DNA of 64,000 nt. Origin: Omnitrophica WOR_2 bacterium RIFOXYA2_FULL_38_17. Lineage in GTDB: Bacteria > Omnitrophota > Gorgyraeia > Zapsychrales > Zapsychraceae. This document shows positions 2 through 16,467 of the stretch, piece by piece (position 1 is the stretch's first letter; each line of letters opens with the position of its first letter). The stretch covers positions 5,279 to 69,278 of the forward strand of contig MHHG01000005.1 of NCBI GenBank assembly GCA_001805965.1. Direction: 5' to 3'. Under the pieces are notes generated by a model. The model was not told where the DNA came from and did not search any database. It saw only the letters and a program-made list of their open reading frames with translations. Made by a program: the position numbers and the translations under genes.

Positions 2-919
2 GCTAAATGTAATTATTGTTATGCTACTTACTATGAACGTCCTGGTAATGATTTACCATTAATTGATATTAATAGGATAATAGACGATTTATCAGCAGCC
101 GGAACATTCAGGATCAATTTTGTTGGTGGAGAACCGTTAGTCAGAGATGATATCCACCAAATTATTTCTTATGCCAAAGATAAAAATATCAATTGTGCTC
201 TTACCACAAATGGACTATTAGTTAAACAAAATATCAAAACGCTTAAATTGCTTGACTCATTATGTTTCAGCATTGATGGCTGTGAAATAAATAATGACCT
301 TAACAGGGGGAAAGGTTCCTACAAAAAGGCTATCGAAGGATTGGAAATATGTAAAAATGAGAACATAAAAGTACAATTAAGCGCCGTACTAACAAAACAT
401 ACAGTAAATGATGTTGAACATATGGTAAACCTTGCTAGAAAGTATGATTGCAAAGTAGGATTTACAACATTAATTAGCCAGAATAGAGGACATAAAACTT
501 TTGATAATGATCTTCAGGCTGATATTGAACAGACAAAAAGTGCACTTAGACAGATAATTTTGCTGAAGGAAAATAATGCCCCGATATTGTTCTCTGTCGA
601 AACGTATAAAAACAGTTTATTATGGCCGGATTATAAGAAGGATATTTATTTCAAAGAAGAACCGGATTTTAAATATCCAAAATGTTATGCAGGAAAATAT
701 TTTTGTATTATTGATTACAACGGAGATATTTATCCTTGTCCTCAATTGATCGGAATATTTAAACCAAATAATATTCTAAAAAACGGATTTAAAGATGCTT
801 TTGATACTGCATCAAAGCATAGTTGTAATGCATGCTCAATGCCTTGTTCAAACGAATTTAGCATGTTTTTTGATCTTAACCCAAGAGTAATGTTCGACCT
901 ATTCATCAACAGGGAATGA
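2..919 (+). CDS. Radical SAM/SPASM-domain protein, 5' partial (start lies upstream of the window)
   Basis: The reading frame runs in from position 2 (AKCNYCYA..., the CxxC remainder of the CX3CX2C motif). It has the FVGGEPLV motif and a Cys-rich C-terminal SPASM-like segment (CYAGKYFC...YPCP...CNACSMPC). It is the same frame as track ORF 248..919 with no stop before it. Confidence 0.7.
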   Translation, partial: AKCNYCYATYYERPGNDLPLIDINRIIDDLSAAGTFRINFVGGEPLVRDDIHQIISYAKDKNINCALTTNGLLVKQNIKTLKLLDSLCFSIDGCEINNDLNRGKGSYKKAIEGLEICKNENIKVQLSAVLTKHTVNDVEHMVNLARKYDCKVGFTTLISQNRGHKTFDNDLQADIEQTKSALRQIILLKENNAPILFSVETYKNSLLWPDYKKDIYFKEEPDFKYPKCYAGKYFCIIDYNGDIYPCPQLIGIFKPNNILKNGFKDAFDTASKHSCNACSMPCSNEFSMFFDLNPRVMFDLFINRE

Positions 920-925
920 ATCAGT

Positions 926-1909
926 ATGTCTTTTTATAATAGAATAAAATCAGTTAATAGTTATATTAACGGTAAAACAACATCAGGCAATGTTTACCGC
1001 CTCGTAATAGAAATCAGCAATGCATGCAATCTGAAATGTTCAATGTGCCCAAGAAATAACATGGAACGTAAAGTTGAATTTATGACCAGCCAAGCATTTG
1101 AATCTATTATTAAAGACAATAAAGAAACTCTTGAATTTGTAAGCTTAAATGGTTACGGTGAACCTTTAATGCACCCGGAACTTTCAAGGTTCTTGAATAT
1201 TTGCAAGACATATAAGATTAAATCTGGCATTTCAACAAACTGCACCTTGCTTGATGAAAAAAGATCAAGAGAACTGCTAGAAAATCCCCCTGATTTAATT
1301 ATTCTTGCAATTGATGGAGCCACATCTGAAACTTATGAGGAGGTAAGGGTTGGTGCAAAATTTGACATTGTAATTAAAAATGTTAAACGTTTCCTGGGTA
1401 TGCGGAAAGGATACAACAAGAAACCTTTCGTAGTTCTCCAGTTTATTTATATGACAGAAACAAAATCACAAATTAACAAATTCAAAGGACTTTTTAACGG
1501 ATATGATTATGATTCGATTAGAATACGACAGTTAACACATTCCGGACGGAACAGGACAGATTCAAACTATAACAATTCTATGGGTTCTTGTTCATGGATA
1601 TGGAACGAACCAATGATATTGAGCGATGGAACTCTTGTCCCTTGTTGCCAAGATGTTAATGGCATTCTTAAATTAGGGAACATATTTAATGATCCCTTAA
1701 GTACGCTGTGGAATACTGGCTCTATTAATTCATTAAGGGAGAAGCATTCTTGTAATTTGCGCAAAACAATAAATTTATGCGAGCAATGTAATATGTATCA
1801 GCCCAGCTGGCCATTATTATTATGCAGCACCTTGTTTAACACAAAAGACCTAAATATGATCTTACCCTATGTTGAAACAATGCTTTCAATGCACAGATAT
1901 TGCAAATAA
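926..1909 (+). CDS. Radical SAM/SPASM-domain protein
   Basis: ISNACNLKCSMCPRN is a CX3CX2C motif. The GYGEPL motif is present. The C-terminal Cys cluster (LVPCCQDVNG, CNL...CEQCNMY) is SPASM/twitch-like. Confidence 0.7.
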   Translation: MSFYNRIKSVNSYINGKTTSGNVYRLVIEISNACNLKCSMCPRNNMERKVEFMTSQAFESIIKDNKETLEFVSLNGYGEPLMHPELSRFLNICKTYKIKSGISTNCTLLDEKRSRELLENPPDLIILAIDGATSETYEEVRVGAKFDIVIKNVKRFLGMRKGYNKKPFVVLQFIYMTETKSQINKFKGLFNGYDYDSIRIRQLTHSGRNRTDSNYNNSMGSCSWIWNEPMILSDGTLVPCCQDVNGILKLGNIFNDPLSTLWNTGSINSLREKHSCNLRKTINLCEQCNMYQPSWPLLLCSTLFNTKDLNMILPYVETMLSMHRYCK

Positions 1910-1918
1910 GGAACTTAA

Positions 1919-3283
1919 TTGAAACAAAAAGTCTTATTAGTTACTTCTCCGGCTATTCAAAAGAACAATTTTTGGACTTGTTCAATAACCAGCCCAATTG
2001 GCAGCATAATGCCTCCATGTGACTTGGCTTCAATAGCAGCTGTTTTACGTAAGAATAATATCGAGCCCAAAATACTCGAGATGCGTCATTTTAAAGACCC
2101 AATTCAAGCATTAAAGAATGAGGTCGCCGTTTTTCAACCTGATGCAATAGTCACTAATATTGGAACTGCCTCCGCAATTGAGGATTTTGAGATATTAGCA
2201 GCAGCTAAAGATACTGTTGAAAAACGTATTTGTTTCTGCTTTCATGCAATGGCGCTACCGGATGAACTGTTTGAAAAAGGGGCTACACATATTCTTGCCG
2301 GAGACCCTGAATATAGCATTGTAGCGGCAGTTCGTGGAGAGACCCTTGAAAAAGGCCTTTGGACAAAAGAAACAATCAAGAGAGAACCTGCCTGGATATC
2401 AGACCTTGATTCACTTCCTTTCCCGGCTTTAGACCTGATTGATATTGATGCATATCATGCACTTATCATGGGTAAAAATAGATTTGCGATATTGCTAAGC
2501 AATAGGGGGTGCCCTTATGAATGTCCGTATTGCGTTCTTCCGTTTCTATTTGGGCATAAGTTTAGAACAATGTCTGTTGATCGAGTAATTTCTGAGATCG
2601 AGCACAACATAAAGGAATTCGGCATCCGCTCATTTTTCTTTATTGATTCTGCCATCAATATAAATCCTCAATGGACCATGGAATTCTGTAAAGAAATACA
2701 AAGAAGAAACCTTAAGATACGCTGGTGCAGCAATATGAGAATTCCCCCTGTAACGAAAGAACTTTTGTATGAAATGAAAAAAGCAGGTTGTTTTCGTCTA
2801 TTCTATGGAGTAGAGGACCTTGACCTTTTAGAAAGATTGGACCGAAGAACAACAACAACTGCAACAAAAGAAGCTTTTGCATTAACTAGATCAGCAGGCA
2901 TAGAAACTGTTGCGTTTATAATTTTATTTCCAGATATTGATACAAATGAGAAAGTTATGGCGAAACGTATTATAAAAATGGTCTCAGACCTAAAAGCAGA
3001 TGCTATTCAGTGCAATATTGCAATTCCATATCCCGGCTCAAAAATGTATAATGAGTATATTGATAAATACAATATGTCAAAAAACTGGCAATTATATGAT
3101 CCTGCGGGAAATAAATACCCTTATAAAAGCAAACTGGATCTAGTAAAAACCAGACAATTGATATATTTGGGATTTTTCTTAAAAAATCCGATATATGTTT
3201 GGAATATAGTCAAGAACGCTAGCCTGCGCTCAATATTTACTTTTTTAAAAAATGCAACAATAGTGCTTTTCAATAGAAAATAA
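1919..3283 (+). CDS. Class B (B12-binding domain) radical SAM protein
   Basis: The N-terminal region looks like a B12-binding domain. The radical SAM motif is LSNRGCPYECPYC (CX3CX2C). A TTG start is supported by an AAGGA RBS 6 nt upstream. Confidence 0.65.
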   Translation: MKQKVLLVTSPAIQKNNFWTCSITSPIGSIMPPCDLASIAAVLRKNNIEPKILEMRHFKDPIQALKNEVAVFQPDAIVTNIGTASAIEDFEILAAAKDTVEKRICFCFHAMALPDELFEKGATHILAGDPEYSIVAAVRGETLEKGLWTKETIKREPAWISDLDSLPFPALDLIDIDAYHALIMGKNRFAILLSNRGCPYECPYCVLPFLFGHKFRTMSVDRVISEIEHNIKEFGIRSFFFIDSAININPQWTMEFCKEIQRRNLKIRWCSNMRIPPVTKELLYEMKKAGCFRLFYGVEDLDLLERLDRRTTTTATKEAFALTRSAGIETVAFIILFPDIDTNEKVMAKRIIKMVSDLKADAIQCNIAIPYPGSKMYNEYIDKYNMSKNWQLYDPAGNKYPYKSKLDLVKTRQLIYLGFFLKNPIYVWNIVKNASLRSIFTFLKNATIVLFNRK

Positions 3284-3287
3284 TATA

Positions 3288-4685
3288 ATGCGAATTATTC
3301 TACTATCACCACCATATTTACCGGAATACATGAGAAACGCCCGCTGTGATTTTGTTTCCATCTCTGCAACGCAATGGTACCCAATATTACTTGGTTATTG
3401 CGGAGCCTATCTGGAATACGAAGGACATACTGTAAAACTTATTGATGCCCCTGCCGCAGGATTAAACCATTCTCAAACAAAAATAATGATAGAAGAATGG
3501 TGCCCCAATCTTATCGTTCTTTATACCGGCAGAATGAGCGAAGACAATGACATCGCATTTGCTGAATCAATTATTGGATCAGTTAAATGTGACTGTGTTA
3601 TTGTGGGCCCTTATGCAAATATTGATCCTAAGGCTACTTTATCAAAATCAAAGATCATTAATAAGCTGGTAGCTGGAGAATTTGAACATCCTGTCGGGGA
3701 AATAGCTGGAGGCGTTGATCTTGGAAGCATTAAAAATCTGATATTCCGGAATGATGATACTATTCAAATAAACCCTACAAGAGAATATCTCACTACTGCA
3801 CAGCTTGATGAAATACCTTTCGTTTCAAGATTTTTTAGCAAGCAGCTCGATGAAAAATGGTACAAAACCCCATCTGAGTATTATCCTTATATTGACATTC
3901 TGACAGGAAGAGGCTGTAAATATGGACAATGCACTTACTGTTTGTGGGTTAATAGTTACGTTAAAGGCTCCACATATAACACAAGAAGCATAAACAATGT
4001 AATTGAAGAGTTTAAATATATTGAAAAAGAACTTCCTCATATCAGATCAGTTATGATACAAGATGATACTTTTACTGAAACAAGAGCAAGAGAGTTTAGC
4101 GATCAAATAATCAATTATGATATAAAGCTCCCATGGTCTTGTTATGCCCGAGCAAACATGAGCTACGGAACGATGCTCCTCATGAAAAAAGCTAATTGCA
4201 GGAATATCCACGTTGGTTATGAATCTGGCGACCCAAACATCCTGACCAGAATAAAAAAGGGGATTAGCATTGAAAGAATGATACGCTTTTCTCAAGATGC
4301 AAAAAAAGCCGGCTTACGAGTTCATGCTGATTTTGCGTTTGGATTTCCCGGAGAAACACCTGAAAACGCAAAAAAAACTGTTGAGTTAGCTTATAGAATG
4401 AACCCTCACACTTGCCAATTTCAAATAATGATACCCTTTCCAGGTACTCCATTTTATGACGAAATGAAGAAAAATGGATGGCTCAATAAGGATGGGCAAC
4501 CAGACATGCCGCAGTTCACAAATGACCAGATCAGAGAAGTTGCTAAATATGCATACAAAAGACTTTATATAAGTCCTAATTATTTGATCAAATGCATATG
4601 CCACCCATATGAGCACTTTTTTGCTAGAATAAAAGCCATTTCGCGAGCGATACCTGCATTATTCTGGAAAAAGTGGTCTTTATAA
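3288..4685 (+). CDS. Class B (B12-binding domain) radical SAM protein, variant CX4CX2C motif
   Basis: The motif ILTGRGCKYGQCTYC has C-x4-C-x2-C spacing. It is preceded by an N-terminal B12-binding-like domain. It is a paralog of 1919..3283 and of 43366..44805. Confidence 0.6.
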   Translation: MRIILLSPPYLPEYMRNARCDFVSISATQWYPILLGYCGAYLEYEGHTVKLIDAPAAGLNHSQTKIMIEEWCPNLIVLYTGRMSEDNDIAFAESIIGSVKCDCVIVGPYANIDPKATLSKSKIINKLVAGEFEHPVGEIAGGVDLGSIKNLIFRNDDTIQINPTREYLTTAQLDEIPFVSRFFSKQLDEKWYKTPSEYYPYIDILTGRGCKYGQCTYCLWVNSYVKGSTYNTRSINNVIEEFKYIEKELPHIRSVMIQDDTFTETRAREFSDQIINYDIKLPWSCYARANMSYGTMLLMKKANCRNIHVGYESGDPNILTRIKKGISIERMIRFSQDAKKAGLRVHADFAFGFPGETPENAKKTVELAYRMNPHTCQFQIMIPFPGTPFYDEMKKNGWLNKDGQPDMPQFTNDQIREVAKYAYKRLYISPNYLIKCICHPYEHFFARIKAISRAIPALFWKKWSL

Positions 4686-4775: not shown

Positions 4776-6449
4776 ATGTTAAGTAAACTCATCCAAAAAC
4801 ACAAATTGATCATTGTTACATTAGCTTTAGTTCTTTCAACAATATTGCTAAAAAGAATATCTTATAGCTTTATTTTTCCTATTTTGTTCTTTTTGGGAAT
4901 TTCAAACAAAAAAGATATCTCTTACAGAAGAGGGCTGATCTTGCTAGCTTTCACAATTGTAGCAATAGGAATGTTCTCTTATGTAATGAACAATTCATTA
5001 GGCCGAGATGAAAACATGTATCTAACTTCATCCAAACTAATGGCATCCCAATCTTTGTACACTGATTTCGCATATTTCCAAATGCCCTATTTCCCGATCA
5101 TCACAGGCAATCTTTTTAAATTATTTAAAATTACCCATTATTTACTATTTGGAAGAATAATTGCTTTTGCCGCCATATTTTCATCTTCAATATTTATTTA
5201 CCTGATCTCAATTAAGCTTACAGGAAGTAAGTTCATATCGCTTACAAGCATGCTGATATTTTCTTTGAATGAAACAATTGTTAGGGCCTGCGGCTATGCA
5301 TGGAATCATGTTATGCCGATTACTTTTCTTTTAATTGCTTTACATTTTTATTTGAACAGCTACGTTGAGAACTCAAGATACAGGAGATTGTTTTTTTGCG
5401 GATCCTTTGCTGCTCTAGCTTCTGGAACAAAACTTTTCTATATTTCAACAACAATACCACTATTAATTTTTACTATATTCTATCCAAAGAAAATATCATA
5501 TAAGAATTATCTTAGAACTGAACTAACATCATTTATTTCTGGATTATTTGTTGGGTCATTTCCTATTTTTTATTATCTGTTTCGTAACCCCGAGATATTT
5601 ATTTTTAATAATTTCAAATATCACGATCTAAATTCACTATGGTACAAAGAAATTGGAACTTTTTCGCCAATATCCTTAAAACAAAAATTATACGCCGCAA
5701 AAGTTCTTTTGTTAAACAACTCAAATTTTTTTCCAACAGCAATAACAATCTTTTTTATAATAACCCTCTTGGTTTCTTTGACAAAACGAGAGAAGCCTAA
5801 TCTAAATTTTAAAATTAATTATATTGGCCTTTCTGCTTCAATGCTTATATTTGCGATAATTGTCGTATTTTTGCCTTCACCAATCCAAGAACTGTACTTT
5901 ATATTGCCATTTACTTTAATGCTATTCTTAACATTATGCTTTTACAACTCAATACCAAACCACTGTAATATTTATTTCAGAAGCATTTTTCTAGCAACAT
6001 CAATTATAGTTATGTTTTCTGGTGGACCTAGGCTCTTTCGTTATGCAGATGGGAGAACTTTTAGAACAGAGGGTTGGCGGGGCATGATAGTGCACCAAAC
6101 AGCAAATGAGATCAAAAAGAACATTCCTAACATGAAATCAATTGACTGCATCGCAACATTATCGCCTTTATACGCAATAGAATCTCAAACAAATATATAT
6201 AATGAATTTTCAACTGGACCCTTTTTGTATCGTGTCGGCCATTTTATTGATAAAAAGCTATTAGCAAGATATAAAGGAACATCAAAGATCCATTTGAATA
6301 CTTTTTTAGATGCTCAAGAACCTAAAGCTATCCTCGTCGGACACGATAAGCTAGTTGAGCAGCCCTTTATCGATTATGCTAATTCAAGAGGATATTTAAA
6401 GGTCGACAAGGATTTTGATGGCTTAACTTTATACATTTTAAACAAATAA
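4776..6449 (+). CDS. Polytopic membrane protein, GT-C-fold glycosyltransferase-like (ArnT/PMT-like)
   Basis: It has at least 10 predicted TM helices and an early loop with GRDENMY (a DE-type motif). Its size and topology resemble GT39/GT83 enzymes. Confidence 0.45.
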   Translation: MLSKLIQKHKLIIVTLALVLSTILLKRISYSFIFPILFFLGISNKKDISYRRGLILLAFTIVAIGMFSYVMNNSLGRDENMYLTSSKLMASQSLYTDFAYFQMPYFPIITGNLFKLFKITHYLLFGRIIAFAAIFSSSIFIYLISIKLTGSKFISLTSMLIFSLNETIVRACGYAWNHVMPITFLLIALHFYLNSYVENSRYRRLFFCGSFAALASGTKLFYISTTIPLLIFTIFYPKKISYKNYLRTELTSFISGLFVGSFPIFYYLFRNPEIFIFNNFKYHDLNSLWYKEIGTFSPISLKQKLYAAKVLLLNNSNFFPTAITIFFIITLLVSLTKREKPNLNFKINYIGLSASMLIFAIIVVFLPSPIQELYFILPFTLMLFLTLCFYNSIPNHCNIYFRSIFLATSIIVMFSGGPRLFRYADGRTFRTEGWRGMIVHQTANEIKKNIPNMKSIDCIATLSPLYAIESQTNIYNEFSTGPFLYRVGHFIDKKLLARYKGTSKIHLNTFLDAQEPKAILVGHDKLVEQPFIDYANSRGYLKVDKDFDGLTLYILNK

Positions 6450-6468
6450 TATTTTTCAGGAGATCTTC

Positions 6469-7335
6469 ATGAAACACTTGTTTATCGCATTACGGCCAAA
6501 GCACTGGATAAAAAATATGTTTATTTTTTTACCGCTTATATTTGGAAAAAAATTATTCATAAGCCCCTTGAACACTAATACTGTGCTGGCATTTTTCTTA
6601 TTTTCTATAGCAGCTAGTGCTGTATACCTGATGAATGACATAATTGACTGCGAAAAGGACAAAAAACATCCCGCAAAAAAAATGAGGCCCATTGCTGCAG
6701 GAAAGGTCAGCACTAATAAAGCAGTTATAACCTCAATTCTTCTGGGCTCAATAGCTATAGCAGGAGCATCTTTATTAAGCATTAAATTCTGTTCTATTAT
6801 CATGATCTATTTGATCGCAAATATAATATATTCAAAATTATTAAAAGAAGCTGTCATCATTGACGTATTTTGCATCGCTATATTCTTTTTTCTTCGTGTT
6901 TTAGCGGGAGGCATCATAGCAGAGACTGAAATATCTCATTGGCTTTTAATAATGACCACTTTAATAGCTTTGTTTTTAAGTTTGAACAAAAGAAGGCAGG
7001 AGCTGTTGATCACTGACCAAAATCTACAAGACAGAAGAGTCGTTCTTGATAAGTACAACACATATTTTATAGATCAAATGATCGCCGTTATTACTTCATC
7101 AGTTGTTATTTCATACATGCTTTACACTGTTGATGAAAGAACTGTAAGCGTATTTGGCACTAAAAATTTAATTTATTCTGTGCCGTTCGTATATTATGGC
7201 ATTTTTAGATATTTATATTTAATTCACAAAGCAAACGCTGATGGTGACCCTACAAAATTGTTTTTATCTGATTTTAAAATGCAGTTAAATGTTATATTGT
7301 GGCTTATCGTTTGCTCAGTTGTGATATATTTTTAA
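6469..7335 (+). CDS. UbiA-family prenyltransferase, decaprenyl-phosphate phosphoribosyltransferase-like
   Basis: The N-terminus LRPKHWIKNMFIFLPLIFG and the NDIIDCEKD (NDxxDxxxD) motif are typical of the Rv3806c/DPPR synthase subfamily. An AGGAG RBS sits upstream. Confidence 0.6.
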   Translation: MKHLFIALRPKHWIKNMFIFLPLIFGKKLFISPLNTNTVLAFFLFSIAASAVYLMNDIIDCEKDKKHPAKKMRPIAAGKVSTNKAVITSILLGSIAIAGASLLSIKFCSIIMIYLIANIIYSKLLKEAVIIDVFCIAIFFFLRVLAGGIIAETEISHWLLIMTTLIALFLSLNKRRQELLITDQNLQDRRVVLDKYNTYFIDQMIAVITSSVVISYMLYTVDERTVSVFGTKNLIYSVPFVYYGIFRYLYLIHKANADGDPTKLFLSDFKMQLNVILWLIVCSVVIYF

Positions 7336-7369
7336 AATGGTCTTAAAACTAACTTTGTAAGGAGAAAAT

Positions 7370-8407
7370 ATGAAGGTGCTTGTAACAGGTGGTTCAGGAT
7401 TTTTAGGCATAAACATGATAAGAAAACTTCTAGAGAAGGGCATAGAAGATATAGTATCTTTAGATCTGATCAAATTTGACTATCCGGAAATAGATAAGAT
7501 CAAAACCATAGTTGGAGATATCCGGAACATTGTTGATGTAGAAAAAGCTATGTCTGATATTGATATAGTAATTCACACTGCTGCCGCATTACCTTTATAC
7601 ACAAAAGAGGAGATTTACACAATTGATGTCGAGGGCACTCGAACACTCCTAAAAACTGCTCATAAGTTCAATGTCGATAGATTCATCATGATATCTTCAA
7701 CAGCAGTTTATGGAATACCAGACCATCATCCTTTGTATGAAGACGATAAACTTATTGGAGTTGGCCCATATGGTGAAGCTAAAATTAAAGCAGAAGAAGT
7801 CTGTTTTGAATTTAAGAAAAAAGGCATGTGTATCCCTATTCTTAGGCCAAAGTCCTTTATTGGCCCTGAAAGGCTTGGAGTTTTTGCACTCTTCTATGAT
7901 TGGGCCAAAGATGGCAAAGGTTTCCCCATGATCGGAAGCGGAAATAACAGATACCAACTCTTTGATGTAGAGGATCTTTGTGATTCAATTTATCTTTGCA
8001 TGACCAAAGAAAAATCTATAGTTAACGACATCTACAATGTTGGCGCTAAGGAATTCACTACAATGAAAGAAGATTACCAGGCAGTATTGGATAAAGCAGG
8101 CTTTGGCAAGAAGATCATAGGTTTTCCTGCCTGGCCAATGATAACCATATTAAGAATACTTGAATTCTTCAAATTGTCCCCATTGTATAAATGGGTGTAC
8201 GAAACTGCTTGTGAAGATTCATTTGTTTCAATAGAAAAAGCCGAACAAAAGCTCGGGTTCAAACCAAAGTATTCCAACAAAGATGCATTATTGAGAAATT
8301 ACAAATGGTACCTTGATAACTTTAAGAATTTTGAAGGTGCTTCGGGTATCTCCCATAGGGTTCCTTGGAAACAGGGGATATTGAGATTTTTTAAAATCTT
8401 TTTTTAA
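7370..8407 (+). CDS. NAD-dependent epimerase/dehydratase (extended SDR)
   Basis: The Rossmann motif VLVTGGSGFLG is present, with a YxxxK region and a strong AAGGAG RBS. Confidence 0.7.
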   Translation: MKVLVTGGSGFLGINMIRKLLEKGIEDIVSLDLIKFDYPEIDKIKTIVGDIRNIVDVEKAMSDIDIVIHTAAALPLYTKEEIYTIDVEGTRTLLKTAHKFNVDRFIMISSTAVYGIPDHHPLYEDDKLIGVGPYGEAKIKAEEVCFEFKKKGMCIPILRPKSFIGPERLGVFALFYDWAKDGKGFPMIGSGNNRYQLFDVEDLCDSIYLCMTKEKSIVNDIYNVGAKEFTTMKEDYQAVLDKAGFGKKIIGFPAWPMITILRILEFFKLSPLYKWVYETACEDSFVSIEKAEQKLGFKPKYSNKDALLRNYKWYLDNFKNFEGASGISHRVPWKQGILRFFKIFF

Positions 8408-8417
8408 AATATTATTT

Positions 8418-9968
8418 ATGCAAAAAAACATTCTTTATAAAATTGATAAAAACAGTTATTCAATATTAAATTTGTTTTTATTGTCAATTTGCGGAATACT
8501 TCTTGTTTTATTCTTAACACCATCTGGCCTGTATCTTTCCAACGATTCTGTTTCCTATATATGCACCTCAAGGAATATTCTAGCTGGCAAAGGAATAATG
8601 ATCGCTAATAAATCAAATATATTAGTACCCTTACCGTATTTTCCTCCGCTTGTTCCAATGACATTCTCTTTGTTCGGATCGTTAAACAATGATCTGCTGT
8701 ATGTTGCCAGAATATTAAATGCCTTTTGTTTTGGATCAACTATCTTTTTAGTAGGTTTTATTGTTAATAAATTCTCAAATTCGAGAATATTATATCTACC
8801 GGCCTCACTGTTTATCTTGCTCTCTTTGCACCTTGTAAGAATCCACACTTGGCTTTGGAGTGAACCACTTTTCTATATATTCATGACATCAAGCTTTCTG
8901 TCCCTAGCAATTTATTATGATGAAAAATCATTAAAGGCATTTTATATATCAGCAATTTGTGCATCTCTGGCATTCTCAATACGTTATGCAGGTGTCATGG
9001 TAGTCATATCTAATTGTTTAGCTATTATGCTTATAACAACTAAAAAACCTTCTAAAAGATTTAAACAATCCTTCCTTTACGGATTGATTGGCGTTTCCTT
9101 TACATTCACATGGGTTATTTTTAGTAAATATTTTCAAACCATGCACTCAGGCAAAAAATTGATAGTTGATTCATCGTACTTGTTTAATTTCGAAAGCGGA
9201 TTATCTGTTATAAGCGAATGGTTCTTGCCTGGCAGAATTTCATTTCCAATATTTGGAGCTATTTTATTCTTATTATTCCTTATCATATTTTTTAAACAAC
9301 TATACCTTAACTTTAAATCACCGAACAAAACAAATTTCATTACAATAATTTCTGGCTTATATATAATTTCTTATATTTCTTTTCTTTTGATAATTAACCT
9401 TTATACTTTAATACTTTTTGACCCTAGAATCGTATCTTCATTGTTTATAGCTTCAATAATATTCATTTTCACAATTAAATCTAACAATTCACAACCTTTA
9501 TTCAATGCTAGTTCAATTTTGATTTATATTATGCTGTCTATATTAATTTCTTATCCAATACGTATATTAAGGCATGTGAAATATGCACAAAATAAAAACA
9601 TGTCTGTTTTAAACAAGTACAAGAACAATCATAAAGTTCTTGAAGAACTTGACTCATTGCCAAACAATTCTTTGATCTACACGAATATCCCAGGATTGTT
9701 TAAGCTATTCACTTCAAAAGCAGTAAGACAAATACCAAATAAATCGATGACGATTTATGCTGCAGACAATAAGAGGATCCTTGGTGAAACAGATGAATTC
9801 TTGAGCTCTATAAGAAGCAAAAACGTTTTTATTGTATATTTTGAAGATATTGAGTTTAAGGAAACAATGTATTCAGAAGAATACCTAAGAAAACATTTAA
9901 ACATTGATTTTATTAAATCTTTTGATGGTGTTTCAATTTACAAATCAAGAACAAATCTACCGTTATGA
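8418..9968 (+). CDS. Polytopic membrane protein, possible GT-C glycosyltransferase
   Basis: It has many TM helices over a 516-aa length and sits in the glycan island. Its stop overlaps the next start in an ATGA arrangement. Confidence 0.35.
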   Translation: MQKNILYKIDKNSYSILNLFLLSICGILLVLFLTPSGLYLSNDSVSYICTSRNILAGKGIMIANKSNILVPLPYFPPLVPMTFSLFGSLNNDLLYVARILNAFCFGSTIFLVGFIVNKFSNSRILYLPASLFILLSLHLVRIHTWLWSEPLFYIFMTSSFLSLAIYYDEKSLKAFYISAICASLAFSIRYAGVMVVISNCLAIMLITTKKPSKRFKQSFLYGLIGVSFTFTWVIFSKYFQTMHSGKKLIVDSSYLFNFESGLSVISEWFLPGRISFPIFGAILFLLFLIIFFKQLYLNFKSPNKTNFITIISGLYIISYISFLLIINLYTLILFDPRIVSSLFIASIIFIFTIKSNNSQPLFNASSILIYIMLSILISYPIRILRHVKYAQNKNMSVLNKYKNNHKVLEELDSLPNNSLIYTNIPGLFKLFTSKAVRQIPNKSMTIYAADNKRILGETDEFLSSIRSKNVFIVYFEDIEFKETMYSEEYLRKHLNIDFIKSFDGVSIYKSRTNLPL

Positions 9969-10882
9969 CAAAAGACAATCCACTTATCAGTGTGATCATG
10001 CCCACTTATAACAGATCAACAATAGCTGGCAATGCTGCTATTAGCGTTCTACAACAATCATATAATAATATTGAACTTATCATCGTTGATGATGGTTCAT
10101 CTGATGGGACTAAAGATATCATAAAAGCCCTAAATGATACTCGGATAAAATATATAAGACACGAGACAAACAAGGGCGGCTCAGCCGCAAGAAACACTGG
10201 CATAAAATCATCTAAGGGTGATTATTTATCCTTTATTGATGATGACAATATTTGGATGCCTGAAATTTTAGAGCTGCAATACAAGACCTTTTCTAATTCT
10301 TCACCAGATATCGGCATAGTCTATGTTTGGCAAGAAGTTCGCTCGCTTGAAAACAATGAATTGCTTTGGAAAACTCAGCCAACATTAAAAGGCAATTTAA
10401 AAGGACAATTTCTTTACGGACAAGGAATTGGGGGAATGAACTTTTTAACAAGAAGAGAGTGCTTGAATAAAATAGGCCTTTTTGATGAAAATCTAAAAGC
10501 CTGTCAGGATTGGGACCTTCTTAAAAGGCTCTCTGAACATTATTCCTTTGATTTTATTCCTAAGGAACTTGTTGTTTATTATATCCATCCTGAGAGGATA
10601 TCAACCAATTTAGAGAGCTTGATCCTTGGAAGAACAAGAATGGTTGAGAAGTACTTAGATGAATTCAAATTACACCCTGAGGTTTTAACTACTCATTATA
10701 AGCGAATTGGAAAAATGCATTGCATTAATGGCACGTGGAAACATGGCTTTGAATGGTTCAGAAAGGCGATTGAGGTCAATATGCTTTCTATATTTAAAAT
10801 AATCGCATGGTTAGCAATTGATTATCCGCGGTTAAAACTTTTTTCAAGGGATAAGTACTTTAAAAAATACATAATAGATTAA
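9965..10882 (+). CDS. Family 2 glycosyltransferase
   Basis: ISVIMPTYNR...ELIIVDDGSSDGT is the GT2 signature. A DxD motif (IDDD) is present. Confidence 0.8.
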   Translation: MTKDNPLISVIMPTYNRSTIAGNAAISVLQQSYNNIELIIVDDGSSDGTKDIIKALNDTRIKYIRHETNKGGSAARNTGIKSSKGDYLSFIDDDNIWMPEILELQYKTFSNSSPDIGIVYVWQEVRSLENNELLWKTQPTLKGNLKGQFLYGQGIGGMNFLTRRECLNKIGLFDENLKACQDWDLLKRLSEHYSFDFIPKELVVYYIHPERISTNLESLILGRTRMVEKYLDEFKLHPEVLTTHYKRIGKMHCINGTWKHGFEWFRKAIEVNMLSIFKIIAWLAIDYPRLKLFSRDKYFKKYIID

Positions 10883-10923
10883 ATAAGACGCTAATTGTTA
10901 GCAGAACGTAAAAATACAACATA

Positions 10924-11940
10924 ATGAAAATATTATATATTTCTAATCATAACCCCCATTTTGATAATACTAATGTTTTCAGAGAAGACGCTATAAAGCA
11001 ACTCGGGCATGAATTGATATTTTTTGAAGATAGAAGCTTTTTGTTCCCTGGTAGGCTCAGGGACTCATGTGAATTTATAAGGAATATTGACTTAAATTTT
11101 ATCGGAAATAAACTTATCAAGACAATTAAAGAAAACTCACCTGATGTTTGTCTATTTGTGGGAGGGGGGGCTTTTAAAACCCAGGTCTTTAAAGATATTC
11201 AGGATTTAAATGTTAAGTCTATTTTATTGACAACTGATCCTTTAAATAGCTTGTATACTGAGCATATTAGCAAGAATGCATTTTATTTTGACCATATATT
11301 TTACTCTGGCACAGAAGCCAAAACCCTTCTTGATAAATTAGGATATTATAATTCTTCATGGCTGCCCTTTGCCTGTAGTCCAAACTTTCACAAACCAGTA
11401 CTTTTAAATGATGAAGAAAATAAAATATACAAGAAAGACATTGCTTTCGTAGGTTCATACTACAAAAACAGAGAACAAGTATTTGAATCAATAGCTGATC
11501 TTAATTTAGGTATTTGGGGCCCATCTTGGTCAAAAGTAAATAAAAGTTCAAAATTGGCCGTTAAGGCAATTGATACCCGGTTAAATTATACTGAGTGGAT
11601 AAAAATTTACAGCGCTGCCAAAATAGTTGTTGTTTCTCATTATAATGATGGCAAAACACCTTGCTTTCAAGCTAGCCCTAAAATCTTTGAAGCTTTAGCT
11701 TGTAAAAGCTTTCTCTTAGTTGATAAACAAAAGGACGTTTTAGATATTTTTAAAGACAGAAAACATTTAGTGTTCTTCGAGGATCCAAATGATCTAAGAC
11801 AAAAGATCCTCTATTACTTAGACAGCGATAAAGAAAGAAGTTTTATTGCTGAAAACGGCTATAAAGAAGTTTTAATGTCACACACGTATAAAAGAAGAAT
11901 TGAAGATCTATTAAAGATCATCGATACAGATCAATTATGA
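10924..11940 (+). CDS. CgeB-family / DUF3880-like glycosyltransferase-related protein
   Basis: A C-terminal region with FEALACKSFLL resembles the CgeB family. It sits between GT2 and GT4 genes. Confidence 0.45.
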   Translation: MKILYISNHNPHFDNTNVFREDAIKQLGHELIFFEDRSFLFPGRLRDSCEFIRNIDLNFIGNKLIKTIKENSPDVCLFVGGGAFKTQVFKDIQDLNVKSILLTTDPLNSLYTEHISKNAFYFDHIFYSGTEAKTLLDKLGYYNSSWLPFACSPNFHKPVLLNDEENKIYKKDIAFVGSYYKNREQVFESIADLNLGIWGPSWSKVNKSSKLAVKAIDTRLNYTEWIKIYSAAKIVVVSHYNDGKTPCFQASPKIFEALACKSFLLVDKQKDVLDIFKDRKHLVFFEDPNDLRQKILYYLDSDKERSFIAENGYKEVLMSHTYKRRIEDLLKIIDTDQL

Positions 11941-13052
11941 TCACAAAGAAAAACATAATACATTTAATCCCAACATTAGGTGTTGGCGGTGCCGAAAAGG
12001 TCATACTACACATATGCAAGAATTACGACAAAGAAAAATACAAAATAACTGTTATTTACTGGTTAGATTCTGAAGAATTACTGGACCAAATCAAAGAAAC
12101 AGGGGTTGAAGTAATAAAATTAACCATGAAAAAGACCATTTCATTTGAAATGGTCTTTAAATTAAGCAAAATTCTTAAAAACATATCCGCAGACTTACTT
12201 CATACTCATTTTTTTGATAGCGATCTAATTGGTTTTTTTTCATCATTATTATGTAATGTGCCACAAGTAATCCATATTCATTCGTATCCTTATCCAATAG
12301 AAACTAAACATTGTATTAGGTATAAAATCATATCTTTGTTTTGCAAGAAAATATTGTGTGTTTCTGAAATTGTTAAAGATCATGTAATTAAAAAAACCCG
12401 TATTAATCCTTCAAATGTTATGGTTATTCATAATGGCATTGAAATTGACGATATTTATGACAGTCTTAGCAATCAAAATATCTTAAAAACAAGGACCTCC
12501 TTTGGCATTGCAAAAGACGCAATCATCCTTGGAAACGTTGGCCGTTTGATTGCAAAAAAAGGACAAAAATATTTGATTCAAGCAATGCCACTTGTCTTAA
12601 AAAAATATCCTAATATTAAATTAATAATTGTTGGAGATGGCCCGTTAAAATCCGACTTAACACAATTAGTTAATTCGTTATCACTGGAAAATGTTGTGAT
12701 TCTGGCAGGAGAACTGAAGAACATACCCGTTCTTTTAAATGTCTTTGATTTCTTCATATTCCCATCTATCAATGAATCCCTTGGGATAGCAGTTATCGAA
12801 GCTATGGCAGCTGGTAAACCTATCATAGCAATTAAGGATACCGGCGTATCCGAATTAATCGCTAACAACGAAGAAGGCTTATTAATTAATCCAGAGAATG
12901 AAAATGAAATTGCAGATGCAATAATTTATATGATCGAGAATCCTGTAAAAACAAAAGAATTCGGGTTAAAAGCGAAAGAAAAAGCAAAAATGTTCAGTGC
13001 TGCTATAATGGTATCTAAAATACAAAATGTTTATGATGAAATTTTATCTTGA
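11937..13052 (+). CDS. GT4 family glycosyltransferase
   Basis: TLGVGGAEKV is at the N-terminus. The C-terminal motif ESLGIAVIEAMAAGKPIIA is the GT4 EX7E motif. Its start overlaps the previous stop (ATGA). Confidence 0.8.
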   Translation: MITKKNIIHLIPTLGVGGAEKVILHICKNYDKEKYKITVIYWLDSEELLDQIKETGVEVIKLTMKKTISFEMVFKLSKILKNISADLLHTHFFDSDLIGFFSSLLCNVPQVIHIHSYPYPIETKHCIRYKIISLFCKKILCVSEIVKDHVIKKTRINPSNVMVIHNGIEIDDIYDSLSNQNILKTRTSFGIAKDAIILGNVGRLIAKKGQKYLIQAMPLVLKKYPNIKLIIVGDGPLKSDLTQLVNSLSLENVVILAGELKNIPVLLNVFDFFIFPSINESLGIAVIEAMAAGKPIIAIKDTGVSELIANNEEGLLINPENENEIADAIIYMIENPVKTKEFGLKAKEKAKMFSAAIMVSKIQNVYDEILS

Positions 13053-13061
13053 ACCTGAAAT

Positions 13062-14183
13062 ATGAACATATTATACATTCATAACAAAGCACAAATCAGT
13101 GGAGGGGAAAAGAGCCTTATTAATCTTTGGGAAAATATGGATAGGGAAACCTTTAATCTATTCTTAGCTATACCAGAAGAAGGCAAGTTATCTGAATACG
13201 CAAGATCTTTAAATATAAAGGTCTTTCTATTAAAAATACCTCAACTAAACCTATTGCATTGCTTCTCAATTTTTCGTGCACATAATAGCTTGATTTCATT
13301 AATAAAAAAAAACAAAATCGACTTAATACATTCCTATTCACCGAGAAACAATATTTTGGGCGCAATAGCTGCAAAGCTGCTTAGAAAACCAATAATCTGG
13401 CATGAAAGAAATCTACCCTTTGATAATGAAAAAGACATATCAAGACAATTACTGTTCTTACCTGATATAATAATCTGTAATTCCGGAGCGGTTGCTAAAC
13501 GTTTTGAAATAAAAGACAAGGTCCCGGACAAAGTAAAAACAATATTGAATGGCGTCAATGTAAAAAGATTTTCAGCAAACAGCGATACTATGACATTTCG
13601 CCACAAATTTAATCTTGATAAAAGAAAAGTTGTTGGCATTATTTCAAATCTTAATAAAAGAAAGAATGTCGAATATTTTATTGATATCGCAGCAAAGCTT
13701 GCTCAAAAAAGGAAGGATGTTCAATTTGTTATTGTCGGAGACACTTTTGAGGAGCAAAATAACAGATTTGAAGAGCTTAATAAACTAATATCAAATTTTG
13801 GGCTGGAAGATCAATTTACTTTAACAAAGTTTGTTGATAACACTTATGAAATATTGTCTTGCTTCAATATTGCAGCACATGTTACCGAAAGAGAAGCATG
13901 CTCAAGAGCTATTCTGGAATCCATGGCCTGCGGAAAGGCAGTAGTTGCACTGAATGAAGGCGGCAACCCTGAACTTATTGAAAATAATATATCAGGGATC
14001 TTAGTTGAACCAAGGAATTTAGATAAATTTACTGATACACTTAACAAGCTTTTAGATAATGATGTTTTATGCTCACAATTAGGAGAAATGGCCAGAAAAA
14101 GGATCACTGAGTTGTTCGATATAAATATAAACACTAAACTAACTGAAGATCTATATAAACAGCTTTATAAGGACAATGAATGA
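13062..14183 (+). CDS. GT4 family glycosyltransferase
   Basis: GGEKS is at the N-terminus. The C-terminal motif is REACSRAILESMACGKAVVA. Confidence 0.75.
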   Translation: MNILYIHNKAQISGGEKSLINLWENMDRETFNLFLAIPEEGKLSEYARSLNIKVFLLKIPQLNLLHCFSIFRAHNSLISLIKKNKIDLIHSYSPRNNILGAIAAKLLRKPIIWHERNLPFDNEKDISRQLLFLPDIIICNSGAVAKRFEIKDKVPDKVKTILNGVNVKRFSANSDTMTFRHKFNLDKRKVVGIISNLNKRKNVEYFIDIAAKLAQKRKDVQFVIVGDTFEEQNNRFEELNKLISNFGLEDQFTLTKFVDNTYEILSCFNIAAHVTEREACSRAILESMACGKAVVALNEGGNPELIENNISGILVEPRNLDKFTDTLNKLLDNDVLCSQLGEMARKRITELFDININTKLTEDLYKQLYKDNE

Positions 14184-15307
14184 AATTAGGAATCGACGCA
14201 AGAGAAATACAGGATGGGGTTTATACAGGTATTGGCCGTTCTCTCTACAACTTCATAAAATACTTTTTATCGCAGAATAATGATGACCAACTAGTTTTAT
14301 TCTCTAGTAAGAAGTTAAGGCTAGGGCCCAATAAGAGGTTCAAAAATATTGTAATACCTGGGAACATTATTATTTTATGGGATCAAGTTGCCCTGCCAAT
14401 GGCAATTAATCAAGAACAAATAGATATTTTCTATTCGCCTTATTACAAAGTGCCTCTTAATGCAAAATGTATCGTTGTAAGCGCCATACTTGACCTTATG
14501 TATATCATTTATGAAAAATATAAAAACAATTTGAATTTCTTTTCGGAATCTTATTATAAGCATTTTGGAAAGCTTTATGCAGACAGGTCAGATATTATAT
14601 TAACTTGCTCTGAGTATTCAAAGAAGGACATTATAAATATTTTTTCTGTTGATCCTGAAAAGATAAAGGTAATACCTTTGAGCGTTAGTGATATTTATAA
14701 AACAGAAAATGAGTCCGGGAAGATCTCAGCAGCTAAAGCAAAGTACGGAATAGAAGGCAGATATATCTATTATATAGGCAACTTCAAGCATCATAAGAAT
14801 GTTGAAAACCTCATAATTGCCTTTAGAAAGATTTTACCTAAATTTAAGGACCTGAAACTTGTTTTAGCTGGTCCAAAAACCCATCTATATCAACAATACT
14901 TGTCATTAATACATGTGCTTTCGATTCAGGATAGCGTAATATTTACTGGAAAGATACTCCCGGAAGATGAGCCGCACCTTCTTTACAATGGTGCTGAAGT
15001 ATTTGTATTTCCTTCGCTTTATGAGGGATTTGGGATACCCCCAATTGAAGCAATGGCATGCGGAACACCTGTTATTTCCTCAAATTTAACTTCACTGCCG
15101 GAAGTTATCAGTAGCGCCGGCATTCTGGTTGATCCTTTCAACACTGATGATCTTGCAGCAGCAATTTCTAGCATATTAAGCAACAATAGCCTTAAAGATG
15201 TTTTAATTGAAAAGGGGTTCAAACTTGCTGAGAAATTCTCTCAGGAAAATGTTTCAAAACAATATTATGAGTTCTTTAAAAAACTGTTAAGGAATAAGGA
15301 TAATTAA
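14180..15307 (+). CDS. GT4 family glycosyltransferase
   Basis: The motif EGFGIPPIEAMACGTPVISS is present. Its start overlaps the previous stop (ATGA). Confidence 0.8.
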   Translation: MKLGIDAREIQDGVYTGIGRSLYNFIKYFLSQNNDDQLVLFSSKKLRLGPNKRFKNIVIPGNIIILWDQVALPMAINQEQIDIFYSPYYKVPLNAKCIVVSAILDLMYIIYEKYKNNLNFFSESYYKHFGKLYADRSDIILTCSEYSKKDIINIFSVDPEKIKVIPLSVSDIYKTENESGKISAAKAKYGIEGRYIYYIGNFKHHKNVENLIIAFRKILPKFKDLKLVLAGPKTHLYQQYLSLIHVLSIQDSVIFTGKILPEDEPHLLYNGAEVFVFPSLYEGFGIPPIEAMACGTPVISSNLTSLPEVISSAGILVDPFNTDDLAAAISSILSNNSLKDVLIEKGFKLAEKFSQENVSKQYYEFFKKLLRNKDN

Positions 15308-15320
15308 CCACATATAAACC

Positions 15321-16457
15321 ATGAAATCACTGTTTATTGTCAATGATTTTCCGCCGATATTGGGTGGCCAATCAACATATTACTACAACTTGTGCAGAGC
15401 CTTACCAAAGGATTCCTTTATCGTTCTTGCTCCTAAATGGGGCAAATACAAAGAATTTGATTCTAATCAAGATTTTACAATTATTAGAAAATCTTATTTA
15501 ACAAAGATACCTTTTTTAGAAAAAGCTTTTAAGATCATCCTTCCATTTTTTTATGCATTACCAATAATTTCCAAAAAAGATATAAAACGGATCCATTGTG
15601 CCCATGTCTTATCTACAGGGGTAGTAGGCTTATTGTTAAAAATACTCTTTAAAAAAGAATATTTTCTGTATACTCATTCTGCGGATATCATGTCTTATCA
15701 ACACATTCCACTAATTAAAAAGCTGCTTGTTACTATCTTGAAGAATGCATCTAAAATAATGGCCAATAGCAATTTTACACATGACAAACTGATTGAACTT
15801 GGCGTAGAAAAGGAAAAAATAATCATTTCTCATCCGTTAATAGACTTCAATGACTACACTAAAGAGACTAATTTAAGCAATATCGTGCAGAAATATGACC
15901 TGAAAGGGAAAAAAGTTATTCTTAGCGTAAACCGCCTTATTGAAAGAAAAGGCAATGATATGGTAATCAGGGCTATTCCTATCATTAAAAGGGAAATAGC
16001 AAATGTAGTTTACCTTATTGTTGGATCAGGACATTATTTATCGACCTTGAAGTCCTTGGTTAAAACATATAATTTAGTTTGTACTGTTATTTTTCTTGAA
16101 TCAATTACCAACTTGGAAATAATAGATCTCTATAAGGCATGTAACGTCTTTGTTATGCCTAGCAGGATTAGCGAAAAAAAGGGCGACGCAGAAGGTTTTG
16201 GTATCGTATTTTTAGAAGCAAATGCCTGCGGGATCCCGGTTATAGGGGGGAGATCAGGAGGGATTCCCGATGCTGTTATTGATAATAAAACCGGAATACT
16301 TGTAGATCCTCTAAGTGTTGATGAAATTGCTAAGGCAATAATTCAACTGCTAAAAGACGAGCATTTAGCAAAACAACTTGGCGAATTCGGGAAGAACAGG
16401 GTTAAAGAAGAATTCGATTGGAGAAACGGGGCAAAAGAAGTATCAAATCTTTTCTAA
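15321..16457 (+). CDS. GT4 family glycosyltransferase
   Basis: The motif EGFGIVFLEANACGIPVIGG is present. Confidence 0.75.
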   Translation: MKSLFIVNDFPPILGGQSTYYYNLCRALPKDSFIVLAPKWGKYKEFDSNQDFTIIRKSYLTKIPFLEKAFKIILPFFYALPIISKKDIKRIHCAHVLSTGVVGLLLKILFKKEYFLYTHSADIMSYQHIPLIKKLLVTILKNASKIMANSNFTHDKLIELGVEKEKIIISHPLIDFNDYTKETNLSNIVQKYDLKGKKVILSVNRLIERKGNDMVIRAIPIIKREIANVVYLIVGSGHYLSTLKSLVKTYNLVCTVIFLESITNLEIIDLYKACNVFVMPSRISEKKGDAEGFGIVFLEANACGIPVIGGRSGGIPDAVIDNKTGILVDPLSVDEIAKAIIQLLKDEHLAKQLGEFGKNRVKEEFDWRNGAKEVSNLF

Positions 16458-16467
16458 TTAATATTTT

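Follow-up and report, generated by a model that had tools for sequence, protein, structure and literature searches.

A putative pentofuranose glycosylation cassette with a single GalE-like SDR in a surface-glycan locus of an Omnitrophota bacterium

The window analysed in this work is a 64-kb stretch (64,000 nucleotides) of contig MHHG01000005.1 from Omnitrophica WOR_2 bacterium RIFOXYA2_FULL_38_17. At positions 4776–9968 it holds a cassette of four forward-strand genes. These encode a polytopic glycosyltransferase (GT) of predicted GT-C fold and ArnT-like architecture (GT-C1, 4776–6449, 557 aa), a UbiA-superfamily polyprenyl-phosphate phosphoribosyltransferase (PPPRS) resembling Rv3806c, the decaprenyl-phosphate phosphoribosyltransferase (DPPRS) of mycobacteria (6469–7335, 288 aa), an extended short-chain dehydrogenase/reductase (SDR) with a GalE-like fold (7370–8407, 345 aa), which we propose to be an NAD-dependent polyprenyl-phospho-pentofuranose epimerase, and a second polytopic GT-C glycosyltransferase of the PMT_2/ArnT-like superfamily (GT-C2, 8418–9968, 516 aa). 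We consider it probable that the cassette directs pentofuranose side-chain or cap glycosylation, of a three-component type with an auxiliary epimerase, inside a large Omnitrophota (WOR_2) surface-glycan locus. An earlier sequence-only reading of this DNA had described the four genes in the same order and with exactly the same open reading frame (ORF) positions, and this order is borne out by the ORFs, by fold comparison and by synteny in another Omnitrophota metagenome-assembled genome (MAG). That reading had also suggested a departure from the DprE1-dependent route, either in the lipid-linked pentose itself or in how it is epimerised. This is still the best reading of the cassette, and its precedent has been published. 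By analogy, the absence of DprE1 from the window is accounted for by the single-SDR type described in 2024, an already known variant of an established pathway.

The precedent comes from Kelly, Duong, Nothof, Lowary, and Whitfield (PNAS 2024, PMC11127046), who described three-component pentofuranose systems that consist of a PPPRS, a flippase and a GT-C enzyme. In Citrobacter youngae O1 and O2, the UbiA-like PPPRS, to which a HAD phosphatase is fused, makes ribofuranose (Ribf) linked to undecaprenyl phosphate (undP) from phosphoribosyl pyrophosphate (PRPP), and a small transporter was proposed to flip the undP-linked sugar (PMC11127046). The GT-C enzyme ORF12, which founds family GT136 and carries an Ig-like carbohydrate-binding module (CBM) at residues 503–652, then adds the pentofuranose to the O antigen in the periplasm (PMC11127046). 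In C. youngae O2, the single cytoplasmic GalE-like SDR ORF13 alone switches the undP-linked ribofuranose to xylofuranose (Xylf) (PMC11127046). In the survey of these authors, systems for Xylf glycans had an ORF13 homolog, those for arabinofuranose (Araf) glycans had DprE1/E2 homologs, and Ribf-only systems did without an SDR; systems with several epimerases or GT-Cs, or with separate phosphatases, were noted as well, and Rhizobium sp. CCGE531 is one of those listed (PMC11127046). Our literature search turned up no report of a different mechanism.

With C. youngae O2 ORF12–ORF15 the window has in common a UbiA-type PPPRS with the same catalytic motifs, a GalE-like SDR (GxxGxxG, YxxxK) that replaces DprE1/E2, ORF13 being compared by its description, and adjoining GT-C transferases in a glycan locus with Leloir GTs. 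Unlike in C. youngae O2, the PPPRS of the window has no fused HAD phosphoribose-phosphatase (PRP) domain and no separate phosphatase at its side, a MATE or SMR flippase gene is missing from the window, two GT-Cs with a small α/β C-terminal domain are found where ORF12 has a β-rich CBM, and the host is an uncultured Omnitrophota bacterium. The mycobacterial decaprenyl-phosphate-arabinose pathway (Rv3806c, Rv3807c, DprE1, DprE2, Rv3789, Emb/Aft) starts with an enzyme homologous to that of the window, and the use of a lipid-linked pentofuranose donor by GT-Cs outside the cytoplasm, which we propose for the window, would be a further shared trait. In contrast to that pathway, the window cluster contains neither the DprE1 flavoenzyme nor a DprE2-type classical SDR, PAP2 phosphatase or GtrA-like protein, and the folds of its GT-Cs resemble ArnT and STT3 more than mycobacterial Emb. 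The cassette is thus particular in its minimal PPPRS, its lack of a linked phosphatase and flippase, its two ArnT-like GT-Cs without CBM, and an SDR from a very conserved, widespread and uncharacterised clade.

The predicted UbiA-family phosphoribosyltransferase

Judged by its sequence, the UbiA homolog is an Rv3806c-type polyprenyl-phosphate 5-phosphoribosyltransferase rather than a prenyltransferase of the quinone, heme or chlorophyll type. It scored 285.9 bits (cutoff 234) with the NCBIfam equivalog model NF008977 for decaprenyl-phosphate phosphoribosyltransferase. The NCBIfam models for heme o synthase, UbiA (4-hydroxybenzoate prenyltransferase) and chlorophyll synthase (BchG) each gave at most 30 bits, and the highest score among the competing models was 62 bits for a generic prenyltransferase. 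Residues 7–286 align with residues 20–299 of the solved M. tuberculosis Rv3806c structure (PDB 8j8j, E 6.6e-38). The N-terminal and NDxxDxxxD features that the sequence-only reading had ascribed to the protein are present: RPKHWIKN is the counterpart of RPRQWVKN in Rv3806c, and NDIIDCEKD (residues 56–64, loop II) aligns with NDVRDVEAD. Likewise, KRRQE (within NKRRQEL) aligns with KRYAE of Rv3806c and corresponds to the loop-IV R/E of ORF15 and Rv3806c. The importance of these motif positions in Rv3806c and C. youngae ORF15 has been shown by mutagenesis (PMC11127046). The protein has seven hydrophobic segments in a simple hydropathy scan and, at 288 aa, no added domain such as a fused phosphatase.

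The homolog also matches the general Pfam UbiA family, as would be expected if it were an aromatic or quinone prenyltransferase of the MenA, UbiA, heme o or chlorophyll type whose neighbours were unrelated to it. We regard this explanation as effectively refuted by the distance between 286 bits on the DPPRS model and the scores on named (≤30 bits) and generic (≤62 bits) prenyltransferase models, by the full-length alignment with Rv3806c, and by the position of the gene in a glycan locus, between two GT-C genes. The assignment as a DPPRS, already part of the sequence-only reading, agrees with all of these results.

The same reading had called the arrangement uncommon outside Actinobacteria, and this did not hold. 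UbiA relatives of the Rv3806c type were found on 89 plasmids, among them plasmids of Rhizobium, Sinorhizobium, Bacteroidota, haloarchaea, Lactococcus, Legionella, Vibrio and cyanobacteria, and also in genomes of Omnitrophota, Spirochaetales and Parvarchaeota. In the phage collection, the sole UbiA match was an unannotated 6.6-kb record, which is not the phage cited in PMC11127046.

The extended SDR and its partners in related loci

The SDR is of the extended type (PF01370, E 1.7e-36) with GGSGFLG and YGEAK motifs. Among its bacterial, archaeal and rhizobial relatives T6, G7, G10, G13, S109, Y134 and K138 are invariant and S110 is nearly so, and the GxxGxxG motif and the Ser-Tyr-Lys set are intact. 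The protein stays below every NCBIfam cutoff, with HpnA as the best model (95.9 bits, cutoff 367). It carries a conserved C-terminal extension, SHRVPWKQGILRFFKIFF, with the family-specific pattern HR-x-x-x-K/D-Q-x-I/A-L. The hydrophobic moment of the C-terminus is 0.55, in the top 4 % of all segments scanned along that protein. This moderately amphipathic, conserved extension is suggestive and would be compatible with a lipid-linked substrate. The same extension is found on an SDR of Rhizobium sp. CCGE531 (L019) with only 30 % identity to that of the window, and a second SDR in that locus is without it. Relatives with 69–76 % identity occur across Omnitrophota, Spirochaetota, Margulisbacteria/Saganbacteria, Kiritimatiellales, Peregrinibacteria and other groups, and relatives with about 50 % identity in haloarchaea; compared with these SDR values, the UbiA proteins in SDR-carrying loci are merely 35–63 % identical. 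Most often the SDR stands alone beside housekeeping genes such as deoxyhypusine synthase, rpsI/rplM or rpsB-tsf-pyrH-frr (loci L007, L008 and L020–L099).

A genome-contig search with the single UbiA protein gave six loci, and broader sampling came from plasmids and metagenomes. In five of the six genome loci (Omnitrophota, Spirochaetales) an extended SDR lies directly beside UbiA, in varying gene order; the sixth, from a Parvarchaeota archaeon (L014), has a PHP phosphoesterase and no SDR. On haloarchaeal plasmids, the SDR (49–50 % identity) adjoins UbiA (34–38 %) in three cases and lies about 3 kb apart in a fourth. UbiA is found beside the SDR in 14 of 80 metagenome loci retrieved with the SDR, on contigs many of which are too short to reveal neighbours. 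Overall, UbiA is the most recurrent neighbour family of the SDR (19 of 86 loci), and the other families that recur beside it are housekeeping genes, whose recurrence reflects synteny within lineages. Conversely, in Omnitrophota, Spirochaetales and haloarchaea no family adjoins related UbiA genes more often than this SDR family.

Loci with both UbiA and SDR and with enough flanking sequence contain further candidate components. HAD phosphatases are either separate proteins of 153–197 aa or, as in ORF15, part of a fusion with UbiA (432 aa), and PHP phosphoesterases, SMR/EamA-like or GtrA-like small membrane proteins and one to four large polytopic proteins, some of them matching PMT_2, are also present. 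In one locus (L064) the order UbiA, SDR, polytopic protein is that of the window. On haloarchaeal megaplasmids (Haloterrigena sp. KLK7, Natronococcus, Halostagnicola), the same SDR family adjoins a DPPRS homolog and two GT-Cs, as in the window. Unlike the window, these uncharacterised loci also encode a PHP phosphoesterase and, in addition, an LPG_synthase_TM membrane protein, which could act as flippase; the Haloterrigena plasmid NZ_CP149788.1 (L018) combines the UbiA–SDR pair, both additional proteins and two GT-C genes. Pairing of a PHP-domain phosphoesterase with DPPRS-type UbiA, in place of HAD or PAP2 enzymes, was observed in archaeal and in some bacterial loci (L018, L014, L087).

Other loci combine UbiA with different partners. 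In L023, a 521-aa flavoprotein lies between UbiA and a PMT_2 GT-C. On rhizobial symbiosis plasmids, a related cluster of more elaborate make-up is found, both on pNGR234a (299625–307690, L101), close to nodS/nodU, and in Rhizobium sp. CCGE531 (L019). Besides a HAD–UbiA fusion and two SDRs, one of them with the C-terminal extension, this cluster encodes a GMC oxidoreductase, a hypothetical membrane protein of 658 aa and an SMR protein, after which comes a small hypothetical protein.

For the product of the SDR we favour polyprenyl-P-xylofuranose, the C3 epimer, in analogy to ORF13 of C. youngae O2, with arabinofuranose, the C2 epimer, as a possible alternative. In the latter case the cassette would represent a DprE1-free arabinofuranose route, in which the single SDR is a 2′-epimerase that yields polyprenyl-P-arabinofuranose and both GT-Cs are arabinofuranosyltransferases. 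Chemically, 2′-epimerisation is plausible for a GalE-type enzyme that oxidises and re-reduces its substrate, and nothing in the sequence fixes C3 over C2. Moreover, the nearest plasmid-borne UbiA relative (39 %, Chondrinema) belongs to a DprE1/DprE2-type locus with several GT39-like genes, which points to service of this UbiA lineage in Araf synthesis elsewhere, and AftA and AftB are among the fold matches of the GT-C proteins. On the other hand, all systems with known glycans in the survey of Kelly et al. pair Araf with DprE1/E2 and Xylf with an ORF13-type SDR, and a single-SDR 2′-epimerase is not documented in the literature that we searched. We hence hold the arabinofuranose route to be a rather doubtful, lesser candidate.

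The GT-C proteins and the surrounding glycan locus

According to structure prediction, both polytopic proteins of the cassette have a GT-C fold. The AlphaFold (AF2) model of GT-C1 has a predicted local distance difference test score (pLDDT) of 81 and a predicted TM score (pTM) of 0.84. Its best Foldseek match in the PDB was ArnT (5f15, E 2.2e-7, TM 0.59–0.61), followed by ALG12, STT3, DPY19, AftA, AglB, PglB, Pmt4, AftB and Emb, and the first protein that is not a GT-C enzyme did not appear before rank 36. With the GT-C2 model (pLDDT 58, pTM 0.65), the top 32 Foldseek matches were all GT-C enzymes. At the sequence level the signal is fainter. The two window proteins reach 17.4 and 20.7 bits with Pfam PMT_2/PMT, under the gathering cutoff of 26.1 bits; for GT-C1 the PMT_2 match has E 0.005, and GT-C2 matches the NCBIfam LA_3751/LA_3752 putative GT family with E 3.7e-8, again under cutoff. 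Profiles of the GT-C families gave no sequence-level match to any solved GT-C structure, and only fold comparison did.

The GT-C2 family is large. An exhaustive HMMER search found 22,438 relatives, 4,959 of them at E≤1e-30, and the best 150 listed were mostly full-length. Pfam PMT_2 was matched at E≤0.01 by 21 of 41 sampled family members, with the window protein counted and a best E of 3e-11. Using hhalign, the GT-C1 and GT-C2 families were found to be homologous over their N-terminal core (97 % probability, E 1.2e-10). This alignment pairs D43-x-x-x-Y47 of GT-C2 with E79-x-x-Y82 of GT-C1. In the first extracytoplasmic loop of GT-C1, E79 and Y82 are invariant in the family; in the first loop of GT-C2, Y47 is invariant and D43 nearly so. 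An acidic residue-x-x-Tyr motif in the first outer loop is shared by ArnT/PMT_2 (GT83/GT39-like) enzymes and the GT-Cs of the window. Both predicted models end in a mixed α/β C-terminal domain of about 100–110 residues and show no β-rich CBM. In agreement with the sequence-only reading, Foldseek, the PMT_2 matches within the family and hhalign all point to the GT-C fold for the two proteins. Of the two, GT-C2 is most likely the pentofuranosyltransferase of the cassette.

The cassette genes are closely packed, with intergenic gaps of 19, 34 and 10 bp, and the GT-C2 gene overlaps the following GT2 gene (9965–10882) by 4 bp. The window has a G+C content of 33 %, and ORFs of the length found in the cassette are therefore far beyond chance. 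Within the cassette, neither promoter-like sites (27 versus 33 expected from shuffled sequence) nor terminator-like sites (3 versus 3.4 expected) were in excess, and none was convincing. This close packing without internal promoters or terminators in excess is compatible with one transcription unit. Downstream lie seven Leloir-type GT genes on the same strand (9965–17619; by Pfam one GT2, one Glyco_trans_1_2 and five GT4), which presumably build the acceptor glycan. In another Omnitrophota MAG (L009), the four cassette genes are kept in order with 86, 93, 95 and 87 % amino-acid identity, and public Omnitrophica WOR_2 MAG records hold exact copies of the proteins, labelled 'hypothetical protein' or 'epimerase'. 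In a public MAG of the same organism (GCA_003500255.1, L006), GT-C1 was called as two pieces of 307 and 145 aa (8409–9981) and GT-C2 as a 361-aa fragment (12415–13500). Both genes are intact in the window, and these breaks are probably assembly or frameshift differences.

That the four genes form one module, as the sequence-only reading had it, stands for UbiA, SDR and GT-C2 but less so for GT-C1. A GT-C1 homolog with 35 % identity is found in a syntenic glycan locus (L016, 8001–16064) that contains neither UbiA nor SDR. There, the GT-C1 homolog is followed by a flavoprotein (Amino_oxidase/NAD_binding_8, 423 aa), a 254-aa GT2, a GT2, a Glyco_trans_1_2 and two GT4 genes. The latter GT2, the Glyco_trans_1_2 and the second GT4 are 58, 50 and 49 % identical to the GT2, Glyco_trans_1_2 and GT4b of the window. 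UbiA, SDR and GT-C2 of the window therefore occupy the place of the flavoprotein and the 254-aa GT2, and from this it follows that they look like an exchangeable donor-plus-transferase unit, swappable as a whole, to judge from gene content. GT-C1 would then be, at least in part, a component of the conserved backbone. By this comparison, one and the same backbone locus would receive cassettes for different lipid-linked donors in exchange for one another.

Upstream of the cassette (window 248–4685 and positions 1–4451 of L001), five radical SAM genes and a UbiE-like methyltransferase gene were found, a load of radical-chemistry genes that is unusual for a glycan locus. Two of the radical SAM genes are of the SPASM type, and one, located before the window start, is of the B12-binding type. 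Two more have B12-binding families as their best NCBIfam models, AprD4-like (112.7 bits, cutoff 500) and HpnJ-like (314.8 bits, cutoff 577.6), and the HpnJ-like gene, which adjoins GT-C1, is also kept in L009. The genes before the cassette further include one for a 636-aa protein without Pfam match. At its other end, the glycan locus closes with a tetratricopeptide repeat (TPR) protein (21087–23684, 865 aa) that has about eight hydrophobic segments in its N-terminal domain (residues 1–430). We considered this domain as a third GT-C and rejected it, as it had no Pfam match and reached an hhalign probability of just 0.2 % with the profile of the GT-C2 family; it may instead resemble the membrane domain of a ligase, polymerase or transferase. 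Two further proteins of the window have no Pfam match and no connection to the cassette: a soluble one of 609 aa (59640–61469, reverse strand) and one of 303 aa (45028–45939) that starts with a hydrophobic segment, perhaps a signal peptide.

The proposed pathway and components missing from the window

For pentofuranose transfer by the cassette, we envisage the following order of events. On the cytoplasmic face of the membrane, the UbiA enzyme would transfer ribofuranose-5-phosphate from PRPP to polyprenyl phosphate, as its family membership suggests. The 5-phosphate of this polyprenyl-P-Ribf-5-P would be removed by a phosphatase encoded outside the window. The SDR, with tightly bound NAD and at the membrane surface, might then oxidise and re-reduce one ring hydroxyl and in this way epimerise polyprenyl-P-ribofuranose. 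The donor would cross the membrane via an unlinked flippase. Finally, as fold and gene order suggest, GT-C2 and possibly GT-C1 would add the pentofuranose to the glycan produced by the downstream GT2 and GT4 enzymes.

We searched the window for the components that related pathways would provide. Pfam scans, which covered the ORFs of 120 aa or more that do not lie within a longer one, showed no FAD_binding_4/DprE1-type protein in the 64 kb, and a DprE1-like query from a Bacteroidota DPPRS locus gave no tblastn match at E<1 in the window, in accordance with the sequence-only reading that DprE1 is missing here. With a DprE2-like query, the sole tblastn match in the window was an adh_short gene (52643–53500, 25 %, E 7e-6), an unrelated classical SDR that adjoins chorismate synthase. 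A hydropathy scan of the window for small ORFs with several transmembrane segments was negative, as were tblastn searches of the window with SMR proteins from L012 and Rhizobium and with the LPG_synthase_TM and GMC proteins of related loci.

Several observations weigh against the pentofuranose pathway as proposed. The window has no HAD, PHP or PAP2 phosphatase by Pfam, nor by tblastn with a PHP protein from a related locus, and no SMR, EamA, GtrA, MATE or Wzx-type flippase by Pfam; with neither gene found in the window, two defining components must therefore be encoded elsewhere. The confidence of the GT-C2 model is low. No feature of the sequence tells at which position the sugar is epimerised, on which lipid the donor is carried or what accepts it. 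Finally, about 80 % of the close SDR relatives have no adjoining UbiA, many of them among housekeeping genes, and on two long genomic contigs the SDR stands alone in such a setting, so the role of the SDR may be wider or different. An unlinked phosphatase is plausible, because a PRP-dead C. youngae mutant still yielded some product and because Rv3807c is a separate enzyme.

The SDR neighbourhoods could also mean that the SDR works outside the pentofuranose pathway, on another substrate, and that the donor is plain polyprenyl-P-ribofuranose, as in C. youngae O1. UbiA is not nearby in 66 of the 80 metagenome loci with 69–76 % identical SDRs, two long contigs show the SDR among housekeeping genes, and the UbiA locus from Parvarchaeota has no SDR. 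But many of the 80 contigs are too short for neighbours to be seen, and UbiA is by far the most recurrent neighbour of the SDR that is not a housekeeping gene. The UbiA–SDR pair recurs in differing orders and orientations in Bacteria and Archaea, and published Ribf-only systems go without an SDR. We thus regard an SDR independent of the pentofuranose pathway as quite improbable.

A pentofuranose cassette with its own epimerase therefore remains our preferred explanation. We may speculate further, and with clearly less confidence, that the SDR clade as a whole comprises single-subunit, DprE1/E2-independent polyprenyl-phospho-ribofuranose epimerases, possibly 2′-epimerases that give an arabinofuranose donor, and serves to build a core glycan of the cell envelope in archaea and many uncultured phyla. 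In that case, the window would show a minimal form that relies on an unlinked, general phosphatase and flippase.

The cassette adds a new example to a pathway type known since 2024; the type itself is not new. It yields a short list of enzymes for biochemical testing. In haloarchaea and many bacterial phyla, PPPRS enzymes are likely to have their DprE1-independent epimerase partner in the SDR clade with the diagnostic C-terminal extension. As a rule for annotation, a member of this clade beside a DPPRS-type UbiA and a GT-C would predict a surface glycan decorated with xylo- or arabinofuranose. For the Omnitrophota, a phylum without cultured, glycan-characterised members, the cassette would extend the reach of the lipid-linked pentofuranose pathway to their surface glycans.

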